Positions 6,154-39,331 of a DNA stretch of 64,000 nt are shown piece after piece (position 1 is the stretch's first letter; each line of letters opens with the position of its first letter). Both the position numbers and the translations under genes were made by a program. The notes beneath the pieces were generated by a model, which worked only from the letters and a program-made list of their open reading frames with translations, was not told where the DNA came from and ran no database searches. The stretch lies in sequence record PZ445523.1, one strand, 5' to 3'. Origin of the DNA: a phage.

Positions 6154-6474
6154 TTAGTAATTTTCAGGTCTGCAAATTTTTTTCTTGCGTTGATTTTTCA
6201 TGCGACGAATAGTTTTATCGGAAATTTCATGCTTTTGATAAGCTTTAGATTCTACACCAAAAGCTTTAACATCAAATTCTGACAAGATATATTGAACCAA
6301 CAATTCACGGATAGTGTTGCGTCCAATCTTCTGATCATTCTGTTTCATCGTCTGATGAAGCTCTTTTTCCCATTTATCCAAAATTTGAGGAGTTACAATA
6401 TCGCCTTTTTCTAGTAAAGAAACTACTTTATCATATGCGTAAGAATTGATGGCGTTTTTAATTTGAATAGTCAT
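6154..6474 (-). CDS. Hypothetical protein (106 aa)
   Basis: ORF on the early strand; basic C-terminus. Confidence 0.5.
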   Translation of the reverse strand: MTIQIKNAINSYAYDKVVSLLEKGDIVTPQILDKWEKELHQTMKQNDQKIGRNTIRELLVQYILSEFDVKAFGVESKAYQKHEISDKTIRRMKNQRKKKICRPENY

Positions 6475-6727: not shown

Positions 6728-6867
6728 TTAAATTTTCCAGTTACCGTTTTCATCAATAAATTCAATCCAGTCATTTACTGACCACTTAGTTGTATCACCT
6801 TTTTGGAGTAACATTTAAAGTGTATAACCCCTGCTTAAAAAGCATTCGTTTGATATTCATATTTTCC

Positions 6868-22032: not shown

Positions 22033-22554
22033 TTATCCTTTCATTGAAGGCGTAACGGTTGTTAAATACTTAATCATAGCTTCAGCTTCTGATTTTGATA
22101 ATGAAATTTCTCCATTGTTTTGACGAATAGAAATAAAATCCGGATGACGGTCACCACCAGCTTTTAAAACACACATATAAGTATCAACTTCGCCTTCAAT
22201 ATTTGAAATGATTGAAGCAGTTCCACATGAATGTGGTTTTTGATAAATCAATACAGCTTTTCTTCCGCCATTTGACTGTTCATATGCTTTTAACACATCA
22301 AGCAAATCAGTTCTTTTATCAATAGCTAAAATGTTATTTTCATCTTCAATGTTAAATCCTTCGGATACTTCATAAAGCGTTACCCATAAATCACCAATGT
22401 CAATAACAGCATTTACGTTTCCACGGCTTTCAAGAGCATGACAAATTTTCTTGATTTCGTCATAACTCATTTTAATAATATCATCTCCTTGAATAAGAAA
22501 GATGTCATTTTTAAATTCAACACGAATTAAACCACTTCCACTTGAAATAAACAT
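22033..22554 (-). CDS. Hypothetical protein (173 aa); paralog of 22561..23115
   Basis: Shares a C-terminal motif (EAxxLKxYLxxVxPxM) with the adjacent ORF. Confidence 0.5.
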   Translation of the reverse strand: MFISSGSGLIRVEFKNDIFLIQGDDIIKMSYDEIKKICHALESRGNVNAVIDIGDLWVTLYEVSEGFNIEDENNILAIDKRTDLLDVLKAYEQSNGGRKAVLIYQKPHSCGTASIISNIEGEVDTYMCVLKAGGDRHPDFISIRQNNGEISLSKSEAEAMIKYLTTVTPSMKG

Positions 22555-22560
22555 ATTTCC

Positions 22561-23115
22561 TCACTTTGAAATCATAGTTGGAATGACAGAATCAAGATAA
22601 GTCTTTAGCGCAATAGCTTCGTCTTTGGTAAATGTGACAATATGTGCTCGAGAATCATCAATTTGGCGAACAAGTACGACATCGCCATCTTCATAAGAAG
22701 TCTTGACATCCAAAGTCGTAGTATAATTTGCAGCTACTGGATTAATAATGCTAGCACCGCGATCTTTAGCCCATTGAAGTTTAGACTTTTCGGGTGTTTC
22801 GACTGTTTCAGATTCCAAGAATTCTTTCACCTTGGCAACGAATGTTGCCCAATTGTTGATAGAAAGACACGCAAGTTCAGTTTCAATATTACCACCGTGA
22901 GTGCCACGATAAAAACGAACTTGGAGGTCGTCTGTAATATTAGTTACACAGGTAACTCCTGAGGGAGCATAAGATAAAATCGCAGGCAATTCCATAGGAA
23001 GAATAGTAATACTATCGTCTTCCTGCGTCAGAACGTATATATTACCACGTTTTTCGATAACCAGGTCACCGAACAAATCAGTTGTTTCAATTACAGCTTT
23101 CATATTATTTACCAA
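22561..23115 (-). CDS. Hypothetical protein (184 aa); paralog of 22033..22554
   Basis: Shared C-terminal motif with the adjacent ORF. Confidence 0.5.
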   Translation of the reverse strand: MVNNMKAVIETTDLFGDLVIEKRGNIYVLTQEDDSITILPMELPAILSYAPSGVTCVTNITDDLQVRFYRGTHGGNIETELACLSINNWATFVAKVKEFLESETVETPEKSKLQWAKDRGASIINPVAANYTTTLDVKTSYEDGDVVLVRQIDDSRAHIVTFTKDEAIALKTYLDSVIPTMISK

Positions 23116-23290
23116 TTAAAGTTTCAATATAAGAATCAAGATTTACTTTAGCTTCTTCCATAAGAGTTTTGTATTTAATCTTGTTGGCATGTCCGGAGAA
23201 AGCTGATTCATCAATAATTGTTGATGTATGAACAGCTTTACTATACGTCTCAATTAATTCTCTTAATTTAAAAGCCTGCTCACTTGTCAT
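23105..23290 (-). CDS. Small acidic helical protein (61 aa), paralog family member
   Basis: N-terminal xSEQ-K-L motif shared with 23619, 23816, 25809 and 25994. Confidence 0.5.
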   Translation of the reverse strand: MTSEQAFKLRELIETYSKAVHTSTIIDESAFSGHANKIKYKTLMEEAKVNLDSYIETLIGK

Positions 23291-23417
23291 TACATACTCC
23301 TCTGAATCATATCAATAATGTTGTTCACCAGATTATAAGTAAACATTGGGTAATTATATTGAATCATCACATACACAACAAACAAAACTTTCATTCTCTT
23401 CTCCTTGGCAGTTGACA

Positions 23418-23452
23418 AGATTACTATACCATAACCTTGCCAACTTGTAAAC
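23418..23452 (-). promoter_or_regulatory. Early promoter
   Basis: Minus-strand GTTTACA, 17-nt spacer, TATAGT; followed by GGAG and a short ORF. Confidence 0.45.
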
Positions 23453-23454
23453 CA

Positions 23455-23629
23455 TTAAATGACGTTTTCGATAAAATTCTGAAGCTTTGTATGAGCATCA
23501 ACCATGATTTTCATTTCTTCTTTGGCGAAAGCTATACCTCTTTCACGAGAAGAATATTCATAGTCAGAAACTGCATTAGCATATTCTTCAATTAGCTTTC
23601 ATTAAAAACATCTGCTTTTCAGTTTTCAT
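23455..23629 (-). pseudogene. Frameshifted member of the small acidic paralog family
   Basis: ATG after GGTGGA gives MKTEKQMFLMKAN then a stop; the +1 frame continues as IEEYANAVSDYEYSS... to a stop near 23455. Confidence 0.4.
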
Positions 23630-23813
23630 TATTCCACCTAATCATTTCAAGATATTGAACTAACTTAGCTTTGGATTTATCCAAATCCTTTTTAGCTGCT
23701 TCTATACCGTCGTATGAATATCCTTCACAATGCTCAACTGCTAATTGATATGAATCTATTTCAATATCATGCGCTAATTTAATGATTTTTTCAAACTGTT
23801 CGTGTGTTAGCAT
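23619..23813 (-). CDS. Small acidic helical protein (64 aa), paralog family member
   Basis: MLTHEQFEKIIKLAH...; coupled to neighbours. Confidence 0.5.
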   Translation of the reverse strand: MLTHEQFEKIIKLAHDIEIDSYQLAVEHCEGYSYDGIEAAKKDLDKSKAKLVQYLEMIRWNNEN

Positions 23814-23815
23814 AC

Positions 23816-23998
23816 TTACACTCTCGTATTATGATCGATAATTTCATCAAGAAACATATCTAACGCTTCTAAAGCATTATCAACTTTAGCTTCAAATTCT
23901 TCAATACCTGATAAGGCAAAGTTAACGCGTTCCTCATCTGCTTTACGAATTAAAGCTACCAATTCCTTAATTTTATCCGCTTGTTCAATACTAATCAT
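23816..23998 (-). CDS. Small acidic helical protein (about 60 aa), paralog family member
   Basis: Start reset to [14 protein letters not shown] (TGATG overlap with upstream stop). Confidence 0.45.
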   Translation of the reverse strand: MISIEQADKIKELVALIRKADEERVNFALSGIEEFEAKVDNALEALDMFLDEIIDHNTRV

Positions 23999-24186
23999 TA
24001 TTCCACCACATATGAAAGAGAGAATATTGCACACGCCATGTGAGTTGCAGCTTCATCACACATATTATAACGTTTCTTAAGAAGTTCTACAAGTTCTTCA
24101 CTAGTGACTTCATCCATGTCGACGAAAAAATCACCATTAATGATGACGTAGATATTTCCTTCTTGATTGAGTGCTTCAATTTTCAT
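23998..24186 (-). CDS. Hypothetical small protein (about 62 aa)
   Basis: Start reset to MKIEALNQ after AAGAGGAGAA; upstream codons in the ORF track are the promoter block. Confidence 0.5.
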
Positions 24187-24211
24187 GATGTTCTCCTCTT
24201 TATCCGATGGT

Positions 24212-24244
24212 TGTATAGTACCACAGCTCAAACGGAAAGTAAAC
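24212..24244 (-). promoter_or_regulatory. Early promoter with conserved downstream block
   Basis: Minus-strand GTTTAC, spacer, GGTACTATACAAC block. Confidence 0.5.
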
Positions 24245-24259
24245 CGGTAAAATGAAAAA

Positions 24260-24275
24260 AGTCTCCCGAAGGAGA
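24260..24275 (-). terminator. Stem-loop with UUCG tetraloop
   Basis: Minus-strand GUCUCCUUCGGGAGAC followed by a U run, downstream of ORF 24282..24668. Confidence 0.55.
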
Positions 24276-24281
24276 CTAATG

Positions 24282-24668
24282 TTATTCGAGGGAAAGAAGA
24301 TACTTACTCTGGTAAAACATTCCAGTAATATCATCTATCGTGCTTTGGATGGCTGGAGGCATTTCTTTATAAATGCTGTTAGATTGGTCTAGTATGCGAT
24401 CAATCATTTTAATTGTGTCGGTAGGAAGTTTACTGGCATCTGGAATTGAAGGTGTGTATTTTCGACCAGAATACCCCAAATATTGCTCACCAAATTTATC
24501 AATCAAATCTGGCAACTCGGAGAAAATAAAATCGTATGCTTTGTGTCTAGCATAACTTTTAGTTTCAAAATGTGCAGAATGAAAATAAGCTTGTGCAGCC
24601 ATTAATAAACCTAAGTATTCATCTGCCTTTGAAGGTTTTCCACTTTGTGAAAAGTCGCTGAATTTCAT
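24282..24668 (-). CDS. Hypothetical protein (128 aa)
   Basis: ORF on the early strand, followed by a terminator hairpin. Confidence 0.5.
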
Positions 24669-24958
24669 TCAGTCTCCAATTTAATGTTCATAATTCTAGC
24701 GTATGATTGTGCCATCTCCGCGCCTCGTTCTATACATTCAAAATCAGAAGAGCACGGGTCATTTTTATAGGTCGTTCTCATAAAACTATAGAATTGTTCA
24801 GACGATTCTACGCTTTTATTTTCAAAAAGCATATAAACGTGCCTAATACCAGATTCCATAAATTTATCAAAATGAGGATCGGCATTCGCTTCAATCGATG
24901 GAGATAAAACAAATGACAATCCTAGCATGGCAAATAGTGCCGTTGCTTTTAAGGCCAT
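24665..24958 (-). CDS. Secreted protein with signal peptide (97 aa)
   Basis: N-terminal signal peptide (MALKATALFAMLGLSFVLSPSIEANA); Cys pair in the mature part. Confidence 0.5.
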   Translation of the reverse strand: MALKATALFAMLGLSFVLSPSIEANADPHFDKFMESGIRHVYMLFENKSVESSEQFYSFMRTTYKNDPCSSDFECIERGAEMAQSYARIMNIKLETE

Positions 24959-24970
24959 AAAGGCCTCCTA

Positions 24971-25183
24971 TCATTTTTGTCCTGTATTTACTTTATGCCG
25001 ATGCACGGCCTTAACTTTATCAAGGTATTTTTCAAAATTTCGCAATCTAGTATAGTCTGCCGGAGATTGGTTGAGTGATACTTCTCGACGCAAAGCTGAA
25101 ATGATATTTCCAACTTCCCTACGAATTTCATCTAATTGAAGCACAGTAAGATTGCGAAGTTGCTTTTCAGTTAATTGTAGCAT
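24971..25183 (-). CDS. Hypothetical protein (70 aa)
   Basis: Basic helical ORF immediately downstream of tk. Confidence 0.45.
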
Positions 25184-25225
25184 ATATACCCCTTTAGTTA
25201 GATAAACCTATTTATAACTTTTGCA

Positions 25226-25807
25226 CTAACCGAGCTTTTTAGTTAATTCATTCCAATGTTTTCTACACAAAGAAACATAAATTTCATCACCAATACAGAT
25301 TTGATTACCTTCTTTAACTGATGTTCCATCTTCCATTAATCGAGCTGTCATAATCGCTTTTTTACCACAATGACAAACTGCCTTTAGTTCAATAAGTTTA
25401 TCTGCAATCGCTAAAAGTTCTTTAGAACCTTCAAACAATTTTCCAGCGAAATCAGTCCTTAATCCATAAGCCATAACAGGAACATTATATGTATCAACAA
25501 TTCGGCTCAATTGATGCACCTGTTCAGTTTTTAAAAATTGGGCTTCATCTACAAATATGCAATGAATATCTTTTTGTGCTTCAGCCCATTTATAGAACTC
25601 GAAAATATCCATATCATCCGTAATAATATTCGCTTCCTGCTTAATTCCAATGCGAGAAACGACTTCACAGACAGAATCGCGAGTATCAATAGCAGGCTTA
25701 AGAACTAATACGCCCATTCCGCGTTCTTTATAATTGTGTGCAGCAGTCAAAAGAGAAGCAGATTTTCCAGCATTCATTGCTGCATAAGTAAAAATTAAAC
25801 TCGCCAT
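25226..25807 (-). CDS. tk: Thymidine kinase
   Basis: 193 aa; P-loop MNAGKSASLL and C-terminal zinc cysteines; matches T4 Tk. Confidence 0.95.
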   Translation of the reverse strand: MASLIFTYAAMNAGKSASLLTAAHNYKERGMGVLVLKPAIDTRDSVCEVVSRIGIKQEANIITDDMDIFEFYKWAEAQKDIHCIFVDEAQFLKTEQVHQLSRIVDTYNVPVMAYGLRTDFAGKLFEGSKELLAIADKLIELKAVCHCGKKAIMTARLMEDGTSVKEGNQICIGDEIYVSLCRKHWNELTKKLG

Positions 25808-25808
25808 T

Positions 25809-25997
25809 TTAGTCCTTAGTTAAATTTTCTAAATATGTTTCTAAATCATTTTCAGCTTTATCGATAGATTTTACTAATTCGTAATATGTTTCGGCATCTC
25901 CATATTCAGAAGATATTTCAAAAGACAAATCCTTTTCTAAACTAATAATTTCACCAACTAAAAATAATATTTCGTTCTTTTGTTCGCGAGTAATCAT
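25809..25997 (-). CDS. Small acidic helical protein (62 aa), paralog family member
   Basis: MITREQKNEILFLVGEI...; family motif. Confidence 0.5.
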   Translation of the reverse strand: MITREQKNEILFLVGEIISLEKDLSFEISSEYGDAETYYELVKSIDKAENDLETYLENLTKD

Positions 25998-26179
25998 AAA
26001 GAATTTATATAATCAATGAGTTCTTGCTCTTTATCGTCGAAATCTTTACACAGTTCTTCGTATTCGTCAGTATTAAAAGGACCGCATTCATTACAAACTT
26101 TTTCCAATTCACTATTTTTATCCATAACTTCGTGGATAAGAGAAAAGAGTTTGTCTTTTTGTTCTTTGCTTAGGCTCAT
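25994..26179 (-). CDS. Small acidic helical protein (61 aa), paralog family member
   Basis: MSLSKEQKDKLFSLIHEV...; family motif. Confidence 0.5.
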   Translation of the reverse strand: MSLSKEQKDKLFSLIHEVMDKNSELEKVCNECGPFNTDEYEELCKDFDDKEQELIDYINSL

Positions 26180-26349
26180 ATATTAATTTCCAGAAGTTTT
26201 AAAATAATTCGCTTTTGCTTAAATATTTCCACAGTTAAATGATCAGTATCTTTTTGACCAATTCCAATGGCAAAACCTTTATTAACAGCGAGTTCAATTA
26301 AATTATCAAGTTCACGTAACACTTCGTATTGTAACTCAGAACTATTCAT
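26176..26349 (-). CDS. Hypothetical small protein (about 57 aa)
   Basis: Hand-translated ORF (MNSSELQYEVLRELDNLIELAV...); ATGA overlaps at both ends; below the ORF-track size cut-off. Confidence 0.4.
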   Translation of the reverse strand: MNSSELQYEVLRELDNLIELAVNKGFAIGIGQKDTDHLTVEIFKQKRIILKLLEINI

Positions 26350-26558
26350 TTTGGTTTACCTTCTTTAACGAAATCAGGATAAGGATAAAATCCTGAATAA
26401 AATCCTTCACCTTTATGATTGATGCATCCTTTATTAGAACAATAGCACCAATAATCGAAATCACAAGCCATTTCATCATTGCATAAAGCAAAAACAACCG
26501 GCCACTTACACTTTTCACAGTGGGCATTTTTAAGAATACTAGTTTGGCTCATAACCAT
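26346..26558 (-). CDS. Cysteine-rich small protein (70 aa)
   Basis: About ten Cys/His in CxxC-like spacing; likely a metal-binding fold. Confidence 0.5.
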   Translation of the reverse strand: MVMSQTSILKNAHCEKCKWPVVFALCNDEMACDFDYWCYCSNKGCINHKGEGFYSGFYPYPDFVKEGKPK

Positions 26559-26776
26559 GTCACCTTTAAGCAGTATTCTTCTACATGTTGTTTACGACCT
26601 TTCTTATCAATAAAGGTATATTCAACGAATGTTCCAATGTAGTCTTTATCTACATCATGTGGACTATTAATTGGACATTTAGTACGGCAAATGCGTTCCC
26701 ATTGACGAATAATTACTGCCTTATTCTTTGGGTCATACGGATGTGGATAATGTATATTCATAATAACGGTTCCCAA
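26549..26776 (-). CDS. Hypothetical protein (75 aa)
   Basis: ORF on the early strand. Confidence 0.45.
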   Translation of the reverse strand: MGTVIMNIHYPHPYDPKNKAVIIRQWERICRTKCPINSPHDVDKDYIGTFVEYTFIDKKGRKQHVEEYCLKVTWL

Positions 26777-39087: not shown

Positions 39088-39273
39088 TTATTCACCTTTA
39101 GAAATTTTATCCATAACGATAGCGATTAAACCAATTAAAAATGCTACTACAAGTGAAAACACATTTTCTGCTGTAGTCAGTAATCCGCATATAAATCCAA
39201 CAAACATTGAAAAACTAAAAGCGGAAGCAGAAATTGCAATAGCAACATTTCGAATTAATTCACAGCGTTTCAT
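39088..39273 (-). CDS. Small membrane protein (61 aa)
   Basis: Two hydrophobic helices; downstream of an early promoter. Confidence 0.5.
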   Translation of the reverse strand: MKRCELIRNVAIAISASAFSFSMFVGFICGLLTTAENVFSLVVAFLIGLIAIVMDKISKGE

Positions 39274-39300
39274 TTTATTCTCCTCAGTAGTTGATAGGGT

Positions 39301-39331
39301 AATAATATCACCACCCTATCTAAAAGTAAAC
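39301..39331 (-). promoter_or_regulatory. Early promoter
   Basis: Minus-strand GTTTAC, spacer, TATTAT-like -10; then GAGGAG and ATG. Confidence 0.45.

Follow-up and report, generated by a model that had tools for sequence, protein, structure and literature searches.

The DUF7438 genes of the mobD–tk region

The stretch of phage DNA analysed here (the window; 64,000 nucleotides of sequence record PZ445523.1) comes from a Tequatrovirus (T4-like) genome and holds its nrdC–mobD–rI–tk region, where the gene order and the neighbouring genes (mobD.5, rI.-1, rI, rI.1 and tk) are as in T4. Six members of one small gene family, DUF7438, lie in this region, all on the minus strand and tightly packed, in two clusters: four in the mobD block and two just upstream of the thymidine kinase gene (Table 1). 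They correspond to T4 mobD.2a, mobD.3, mobD.4, tk.1 and tk.2, together with a 61-aa copy that is absent from T4. The frame is intact in five of the six, the exception being mobD.2a, in which a stop follows 13 codons. The intact members are the five ORFs named in the initial annotation, which had placed them correctly (60–64 aa each); the T4 mobD/tk gene set and the curated Pfam family had escaped it. Both Pfam and the T4 annotation already list the gene family, and its presence here is real but ordinary.

Table 1. Positions of the family members, the mobD.2a lesion and the nearby transcription signals
Feature	Coordinates	Strand	Basis
DUF7438 copy 1, 61 aa	23105..23290	-	PF24219 57.8 bits; phrog_4859 E 8e-39
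DUF7438 copy 2 (mobD.2a), frameshifted	23455..23629	-	repaired: PF24219 56.2 bits; phrog_2758 E 6e-35
One-base insertion site, mobD.2a codon 11 (AAA)	23597..23599		DNA alignments against JK23, e11/2 and T4
DUF7438 copy 3 (mobD.3), 64 aa	23619..23813	-	PF24219 64.4 bits; phrog_653 E 1e-25
DUF7438 copy 4 (mobD.4), 60 aa	23816..23998	-	PF24219 49.6 bits
DUF7438 copy 5 (tk.1), 62 aa	25809..25997	-	PF24219 55.6 bits; phrog_653
DUF7438 copy 6 (tk.2), 61 aa	25994..26179	-	PF24219 69.4 bits
Promoter-like site (TTTACA, 17 nt, TG-n-TATAGT)	23423..23451	-	top score of the scan, 10/12, extended -10; consensus match only
Terminator-like hairpin between rI.-1 and mobD.5	24260..24277	-	e11/2 annotation has a terminator in this position

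Copy 1 sits between the mobD.1 homologue and mobD.2, which abut in T4 with nothing between them, and it is also found in JK23, e11/2 and RB27. The last 11 nt of mobD.3 overlap the start of mobD.2a. A GTG-start ORF at 23816-24034 was rejected as an over-extension of mobD.4, which begins MISIEQ. In relatives, the mobD.4 product either takes this 60-aa form or has 67 aa and a loop extended by 21 nt (the coding sequence is 204 nt in JK23 compared to 183 nt in e11/2 and T4), and an 18+3 nt indel separates the window copy from that of RB27. In the second cluster, tk.1 adjoins tk immediately upstream and its DNA is 100% identical to T4 tk.1, while tk.2 is joined to both of its neighbours by ATGA start/stop overlaps. 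The RB27 annotation seemingly lacks mobD.4 and has a shortened tk.2; the RB27 sequence itself encodes six intact copies.

All six ORFs matched Pfam DUF7438 (PF24219; 57 model positions, curated gathering score of 25 bits) at 49.6–69.4 bits over model positions 1-56/57, mobD.2a being scored as the repaired version with one base removed. When HMMs were built from five copies and searched against the 917 six-frame segments of the window, the omitted copy was always the top non-training match (E 1e-5 to 0.03), and the PHROG families of the copies match one another. Hence, even though pairwise identity among the six paralogs is 17–30%, the family resemblance pointed out by the initial annotation is not due to chance. 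Its description of the proteins as acidic was borne out in part: their pI values range from 4.2 to 6.1, but the net charge of two copies is just -1 and -2. No seventh copy was found in the window when an HMM of 102 family sequences was run against all six-frame segments, which returned the same six. Several other candidates were rejected: a weak recurrent match (39091-39315) proved to be a hydrophobic membrane ORF, and rI.1, mobD.5 and a 57-aa ORF at 26176-26349 gave hhalign probabilities below 1%. A search of NCBIfam with the family copies gave no matches.

Two transcription signals were noted close to the mobD cluster. The promoter-like site lies directly after the mobD.2a stop and resembles T4 early promoters; an active promoter here would free mobD.2 and copy 1 from any dependence on transcription through the broken mobD.2a. 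The terminator-like hairpin is followed by the region corresponding to the T4 mobD.5 early promoter, which heads the mobD.5-mobD.4-mobD.3-mobD.2a block and for which, in T4, a primer-extension signal was present in RNA 3 min after infection (PMC1702504).

Fold, distribution and selection

The AlphaFold model of the tk.2 protein is a two-helix hairpin (helices 5-35 and 37-60, pLDDT 89.5), in agreement with the helical character originally predicted for the family. No match reached E 0.001 in fold searches of PDB and BFVD with this model, which returned generic hairpins and uncharacterised proteins of T4-like phages; a profile search of PDB with the family found nothing below E 0.28.

At the sequence level, clustering at 90% identity splits the family into 111 groups, each from T4-like phage sources and nearly all 57–67 aa long, and a search of 1.84 billion proteins yielded 40 representative clusters only. 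The homologues are stand-alone proteins in Tequatrovirus/Mosigvirus-type phage records and in contigs of about 165–172 kb. We conclude that the DUF7438 family is confined to T4-like phages. No domain fusion was found in the representative search, in which the few long matches are repetitive coiled-coil proteins aligned over many short stretches. Two apparent fusions were ruled out, one (P0025) because mobD.2a reads through into mobD.2 there and the other (P0060) because it comes from a 603-nt contig, probably a chimera. A copy-number survey anchored on tk found 4–6 copies near tk in close relatives and 1–3 at 70–81% tk identity; at most loci below about 70% tk identity no copies were detected. 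The pN/pS ratio was 0.11–0.25 in five of the six copies, which shows purifying selection on the orthologues.

The frameshift in mobD.2a

From its ATG at 23629-23627, mobD.2a reads MKTEKQMFLMKAN up to a premature TGA at 23588-23590, and the remaining 47 codons are found in the +1 frame, where the reading resumes as KLIEEYANAVSDYEYSS...IENVI and ends at the original stop (23455-23457). The initial annotation was thus right to read the sixth copy as a frameshifted family member, and the test it had proposed, whether a single-nucleotide change restores the frame, came out positive: deleting one nucleotide gives a 57-aa ORF sharing 93–98% identity with mobD.2a proteins found in hundreds of phages. 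DNA alignments locate the difference precisely. The + strand reads TTT in the window and TT in JK23, e11/2 and T4, so that in the mRNA sense ATG AAA GCT stands where these phages have ATG AAG CTA; in RB27 the codons are AAA CTA and the protein is unchanged. The extra base (AAG to AAAG, mRNA sense) halts translation after 13 codons.

We then compared the lesion with available phage sequences. The insertion was present in none of the 60 best phage records, all of which span 230 nt compared to 231 in the query, and exact k-mers containing it had no matches in IMG/VR, the JGI metagenomes or the GTDB genomes; the intact k-mer had three matches in IMG/VR, the sole collection scanned with it. About 490 orthologues encode MobD.2a in a single frame, and in a spread sample of orthologous records the full 57-aa protein was found in one piece in 45 of 46. 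These results show that the insertion is private to the window genome. When repaired, the window gene has a pN/pS of 0.11, differing from its orthologues mostly at synonymous positions and with no excess of amino-acid changes, so that the lesion must be very recent, unless the gene is in reality intact.

Breaks in mobD.2a, or its loss, are also seen elsewhere. The mobD.2a of reference T4 (NP_813809) has a 1-nt deletion of its own that leaves 38 aa. In both genomes, a single-base frameshift truncates the gene, but the T4 lesion lies further downstream (GCTTTCGCC to GCTTTT-CC, the protein ending ...TAFPRKK), whereas that of the window is an insertion at codon 11; the two are independent events. 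In a sewage contig (L048) the gene is broken by a 7-nt tandem duplication at its 5' end, and in a G8-like phage everything from mobD.2a through nrdC.11 is missing. A viable genome-reduced T4 had likewise lost the block nrdC.11-mobD.3 (PMC9825161).

We considered whether the extra base reflects a real mutation or, as the initial annotation had also suggested, a sequencing indel, here a homopolymer over-call in a phage whose 57-aa mobD.2a is intact. Sequencing or assembly error would explain why the insertion is unique to this record, why a short run grows from TT to TTT and why conservation seems complete across the remainder of the gene, and T runs in the window have gained a private extra base at two more places (T6 to T7 at 6177 and T4 to T5 at 6800), which is exactly the pattern of homopolymer-prone sequencing. 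A 2-to-3 run, however, is a poor substrate for homopolymer errors, and errors are blind to the importance of genes. In an alignment of about 61 kb with RB27 and e11/2, the only uncompensated coding frame-breaking indels at which the window differs from both references affect three tiny accessory ORFs (the C-terminus of 55.2, 55.4 and mobD.2a); the large conserved genes, roughly 50 kb in all, have none. By a count from the RB27 tables, about 21% of the sequence belongs to ORFs shorter than 120 aa, and three random errors would all be expected to fall in such ORFs about 1% of the time. The error explanation also has to contend with mobD.2a being broken in other, independent sequences, reference T4 among them. 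It retains a substantial share of the probability, well short of even odds. Since the gene is independently broken in T4 and in the sewage contig, and is deletable, we favour a real loss of a dispensable mobD.2a copy over a base-calling error.

If the loss is real, its age and nature have to be considered. The initial annotation offered a decaying paralog, and the independent breakage in T4, L048 and the window and the deletion in the G8-like phage would fit a gene drifting without function in the window lineage. A long-term pseudogene is nevertheless very improbable in view of the pN/pS of 0.11 of the repaired gene, its mostly synonymous differences, the presence of one lesion only and an orthologue that is intact in almost all relatives. 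As mobD.2a is normally intact and under purifying selection, a recent, private loss, alongside independent breaks of the gene in T4 and the sewage contig, is what remains of that suggestion: probably a loss-of-function mutation tolerated by virtue of the gene being non-essential. The initial annotation had also raised a programmed frameshift. Here, a ribosome slipping +1 from AAA to AAG at codon 11 would produce the exact wild-type MobD.2a, and A-AAG would allow the lysine tRNA to re-pair in the +1 frame. The site (AUG UUU UUA AUG AAA GCU AAU UGA) confines such a slip to a single codon, as TAA TGA just ahead of it closes the +1 frame. The requirements for +1 frameshifting are best known from prfB, which has in common with the window gene the direction of the shift and a re-pairing-competent codon (AAA to AAG). 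In contrast to prfB, the site is unconserved, the A-site codon that follows AAA is GCU, neither rare nor a stop, and no Shine-Dalgarno-like stimulator (a GGAGG-like element) is present within 15 nt upstream. A programmed -1 frameshift (X XXY YYZ heptamer and downstream structure) is ruled out by the direction required, +1, and transcriptional slippage, which takes a homopolymer of about 8 or more, by the longest run at the site being three As, far too short. Given that no relative has or needs a shift and that the site has no stimulatory element, programmed frameshifting is rejected as scarcely credible. The segment 23455-23629 is therefore best annotated as a disrupted mobD.2a, and neither as two ORFs nor as a recoding event.

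Possible role of the family and comparison with known modules

Overall, the reading we prefer, at a probability of roughly 0.6, is that the locus carries six DUF7438 paralogs, that mobD.2a has suffered a recent, non-programmed loss and that the family may have an early accessory binding role. A private one-base lesion of this kind is common in phage accessory genes and matters little in itself. Our literature search found no experimental report on the function of any family member, only the use of mobD.5 as a primer or control, a table listing the mobD endonuclease and the genome-reduction deletion.

Labels circulating for two of the genes are unsupported. The family of copy 1 (phrog_4859) is labelled ‘helicase loader’ in PHROGs and RefSeq. 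The sole significant Pfam match of this 61-aa copy is DUF7438 and no loader family was hit, a match to Toast-rack_PspC-Cterm reaching 14.3 bits against a cut-off of 27. No relation to the loaders T4 gp59, DnaC/DnaI or lambda P was detected, the PDB sequence search being empty and the tk.2 fold matches generic hairpins. The RefSeq label of mobD.4, ‘molybdopterin-guanine dinucleotide biosynthesis protein MobD’, was rejected as no MobA/MobB-type match was found in Pfam (E 1) or NCBIfam (E 0.01), and seems to stem from a mix-up with mobD, the T4 gene name that stands for a mobile endonuclease.

By analogy, family members may be early-expressed accessory proteins whose hairpins bind a partner with their exposed face: they might self-associate into a four-helix bundle or attach to a host protein, and each paralog, with a surface of its own, might have its own target. 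Separate targets for separate paralogs are the usual logic of phage host-takeover and counter-defence genes. We regard it as unlikely, though worth bearing in mind, that DUF7438 is a diversifying early host-targeting or counter-defence family in which each paralog meets a distinct host factor and repeated mobD.2a loss reflects host-dependent selection; the losses in T4, the window, the sewage contig and the G8-like phage might then serve, for example, to escape bacterial sensing and not be mere dispensability. As a T4-specific, presumably early and dispensable hairpin family, with six copies here, a variable copy number and repeated loss, these genes are reasonable candidates for host-interaction screens.

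Among known systems, the two-helix hairpin of the tk.2 model has the same shape as the histidine-kinase DHp domain, CsoR/FrmR, ZraP and Med11/22 (TM 0.7–0.8). All comparisons of these modules with the model gave Foldseek E values of at least 0.5 and identities of 5–20%, with no sign of common descent or function, and the likeness between them is one of shape alone.

DUF7438 copies in the mobD–tk region

Nucleotides 23000-26400 matched 541 phage records by megablast, 463 of which covered at least 80% of the query, nearly all of these being Tequatrovirus (T4-like) phages of Escherichia, Shigella and Yersinia; the top identity was 97.5%, no record among the 541 was identical, and the nearest records to a 24-kb query were ~96% identical. 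The annotated relatives JK23, e11/2, T4 and RB27 give the gene order nrdC.11 – mobD.1 – mobD.2 – mobD.2a – mobD.3 – mobD.4 – mobD.5 – rI.-1 – rI – rI.1 – tk – tk.1 – tk.2 – tk.3 – tk.4, with every gene on the minus strand; the mobD homing endonuclease itself is missing from this region of the window.

The five ORFs from which the initial annotation had proposed a family of ~60-aa acidic helical paralogs are all present, and the proposed similarity held: all six proteins (copy 1, mobD.2a, mobD.3, mobD.4, tk.1 and tk.2), mobD.2a after removal of one base, match Pfam DUF7438 (PF24219) across their whole length (57.8, 56.2, 64.4, 49.6, 55.6 and 69.4 bits; gathering score 25). The copies share only 17-30% identity in pairs, and most BLASTP comparisons of one with another fall short of significance; even so, when an HMM was trained on any five, the omitted sixth was its top non-training match (E 1e-5 to 0.03) in a set of 917 six-frame segments taken from the window. 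PHROGs splits the six proteins into three mutually cross-hitting families (653, 2758 and 4859), and in a 96-sequence family alignment a Glu-Gln close to the N-terminus and two leucines vary little or not at all. A 102-sequence HMM found no seventh copy in the window, which holds exactly six; profile comparison ruled out rI.1, mobD.5 and the ORF at 26176-26349, and a weak match elsewhere proved to be a membrane ORF. The description as acidic fits four copies (pI 4.2-5.0) and fails for two of near-neutral net charge (pI 5.3 and 6.1, net charge −2 and −1). The family is already known, as Pfam DUF7438 and as the small mobD and tk genes of T4. The earlier observation is confirmed, and its interpretation is partly supported.

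The two adjacent ORFs just upstream of the cluster are paralogs of each other (28% identity over 173 residues, E 5e-8), and one corresponds to T4 mobD.1; the hyperplastic stretch that holds the DUF7438 copies thus contains a further tandem duplication. Of the two small ORFs between tk.2 and tk.4, neither of which the reference T4 annotates, one is a 57-aa phrog_3452 protein, and neither is a DUF7438 member. RefSeq relatives call copy 1 a ‘helicase loader’ and mobD.4 a ‘molybdopterin-guanine dinucleotide biosynthesis protein MobD’; neither name is supported by Pfam, NCBIfam, PDB or fold evidence, and the latter probably reflects confusion with the T4 gene name. The RB27 RefSeq record (NC_025448; L047, 24379-24633 and 26578-26763) omits mobD.4 and shortens tk.2, whereas its DNA encodes both at full length; the gap is one of annotation and not gene decay.

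Features of the window discussed in the text
Feature	Position	Strand	Remark
Insertion in minus-strand ORF 55.2	6177	minus	T6 to T7; rewrites last ~10 residues
Insertion in minus-strand ORF 55.4	6800	minus	T4 to T5; truncates 43-aa product at residue 21
Paralogous ORF	22033-22554	minus	~175-184 aa
Paralogous ORF	22561-23115	minus	~175-184 aa
Copy 1	23105-23290	minus	61 aa; between mobD.1 homologue and mobD.2
Promoter-like site	23451-23423		strongest of region; just after mobD.2a stop
mobD.2a	23455-23629	minus	frameshifted
Insertion site	23597-23599	plus	TTT; TT in JK23, e11/2 and T4
mobD.4	23816-23998	minus	60-aa form
mobD.4 loop	23910-23916		polymorphic by 21 nt
Terminator-like hairpin	24260-24277		
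ATGA overlap	25994-25997		
ATGA overlap	26176-26179		
Small ORF	26176-26349		position annotated in JK23, e11/2 and RB27
Small ORF	26549-26776		
Membrane ORF	39091-39315		weak family match; not a copy
Indel-rich segment	58170-58950		late-gene half

The one-base insertion in mobD.2a

As the initial annotation had described, the mobD.2a ATG at 23629 opens MKTEKQMFLMKAN followed by a stop, and the +1 frame continues as KLIEEYANAVSDYEYSS…IENVI-stop. Alignment with JK23, e11/2 and T4 reveals one extra base: in mRNA sense the window reads ATG AAA GCT AAT TGA and the relatives ATG AAG CTA ATT GAA. RB27 carries AAA CTA, a synonymous variant; since the window's mobD.2a is closest to AAG-type sequences, the difference is most simply explained by the gain of an A. 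Where the query has 231 nt, all of the best 60 phage records have 230 nt, and exact k-mers with the insertion had no match in IMG/VR, JGI metagenomes or GTDB genomes (the intact k-mer, scanned in IMG/VR only, matched three times); the insertion is thus private to this genome. A tblastn search with the repaired protein as query returned 643 records, and in a spread sample all 57 residues were in one piece in 45 of 46 orthologous records. Differences from the orthologues were mostly synonymous (pooled pN/pS 0.11, against 0.18-0.25 for four of the five other copies, tk.1 having too few changes to judge); the pairs counted are not independent of one another, and the values are no more than indicative.

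A programmed frameshift, which the initial annotation had offered as one reading, is highly improbable. Were the lysine tRNA to slip by +1 from AAA to AAG, the exact wild-type protein would result; however, no relative has the two-frame arrangement, the codon after the slip site is GCU, neither rare nor a stop, no Shine-Dalgarno-like element lies upstream, the +1 frame is shut by TAA TGA directly ahead of the site, and three As are insufficient for transcriptional slippage. In what is left of the +1 frame, no start at ATG, GTG or TTG would yield at least 30 aa. The frame is broken by a single inserted base that is private to this genome and not programmed, and the copy it affects is dispensable.

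We consider a real, recent loss the best reading (probability roughly 0.6), and an artefact a less likely one that nevertheless carries appreciable weight. The latter is favoured by two further private insertions, each of one base within a T run, in 55.2 and 55.4; RB27, e11/2 and UFV09 lack both and so, judged by length, do the best 25 phage records. However, over ~61 kb aligned to both RB27 and e11/2, these two and the mobD.2a insertion are the only uncompensated coding frame-breaking indels differing from both, all are in tiny accessory ORFs, and none is in a large replication, nucleotide-metabolism, baseplate or tail gene. ORFs below 120 aa make up ~21% of sequence (our count from RB27 tables), and three random errors would all fall in them with a chance of ~1%; such confinement is exactly the pattern that selection would produce. 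Moreover, mobD.2a is broken independently elsewhere: in the reference T4 (NC_000866; L003, 3550-3666) a 1-nt deletion shortens the product to 38 aa, in a Copenhagen sewage contig (L048, 3180-3365), which encodes a MobD.3 identical to that of the window, 7 nt at the 5′ end (TGAAAAC) are duplicated in tandem, and in a G8-like phage (L011, 7001-7700) mobD.3, its end fused, is joined directly to nrdC.11. A genome-reduced T4 without nrdC.11–mobD.3 is still viable (PMC9825161). The confinement to tiny ORFs, the independent breakage and the dispensability of the block are why we favour real loss.

The three frameshifts in tiny ORFs (55.2, 55.4 and mobD.2a) occur in no relative examined. Both downstream genes at the G8-like junction begin with ATGAAAACTG, a possible recombination point. 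The late-gene segment is dense in compensated indels when set against either RB27 or e11/2, and may be a diverged or mosaic part of a structural gene.

Expression, variation and fold

Gene packing is tight: there are two ATGA overlaps, and mobD.3 and mobD.2a share 11 nt. If the promoter-like site is active, transcription of mobD.2 and copy 1 should be free of polar effects from the broken mobD.2a. The T4 mobD.5 promoter gives a primer-extension signal in RNA 3 min post infection (PMC1702504), and we conclude that the DUF7438 copies are probably early accessory genes.

The family is small and narrow (111 clusters at 90% identity; only 40 representative clusters among 1.84 billion proteins), and its members are nearly all 57-67 aa and stand-alone. 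Across 40 tk-anchored IMG/VR loci, close relatives have 4-6 copies near tk, those at 70-81% tk identity 1-3, and most below ~70% no detectable copy; the most widely kept lies just upstream of tk. Every paralog has truncated, fused and length-variant forms in public data: mobD.4 has 60 aa in the window, T4 and e11/2 and 67 aa in RB27, JK23 and several IMG/VR contigs. Rearrangements, natural and laboratory, join family members or neighbours (the G8-like locus and two public proteins, P0082 and the 50-aa tk.2–tk.1 hybrid P0074).

We found no experimental literature on DUF7438 members, and neither PDB sequences nor NCBIfam matched them. Our best guess is that the hairpins act as protein-binding modules, self-associating or binding host proteins, and would form part of the phage's repertoire for host takeover or counter-defence. 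This proposal draws on their size, on a hairpin whose hydrophobic face is exposed, on their early timing and dispensability, on an expansion specific to the lineage, and on surfaces particular to each paralog that its orthologues conserve. The helical character initially ascribed to the family is supported by an AlphaFold2 model of tk.2 (96-sequence alignment; mean pLDDT 89.5, pTM 0.68), a confidently predicted two-helix hairpin with helices at 5-35 and 37-60. Foldseek against PDB and BFVD returned nothing at E ≤0.001; BFVD yielded mainly phage proteins that are uncharacterised, those ranked highest coming from T4-like phages, and the PDB list, none of it within that threshold, comprises generic bundle-forming hairpins such as histidine-kinase DHp, CsoR/FrmR, ZraP and Med11/22.
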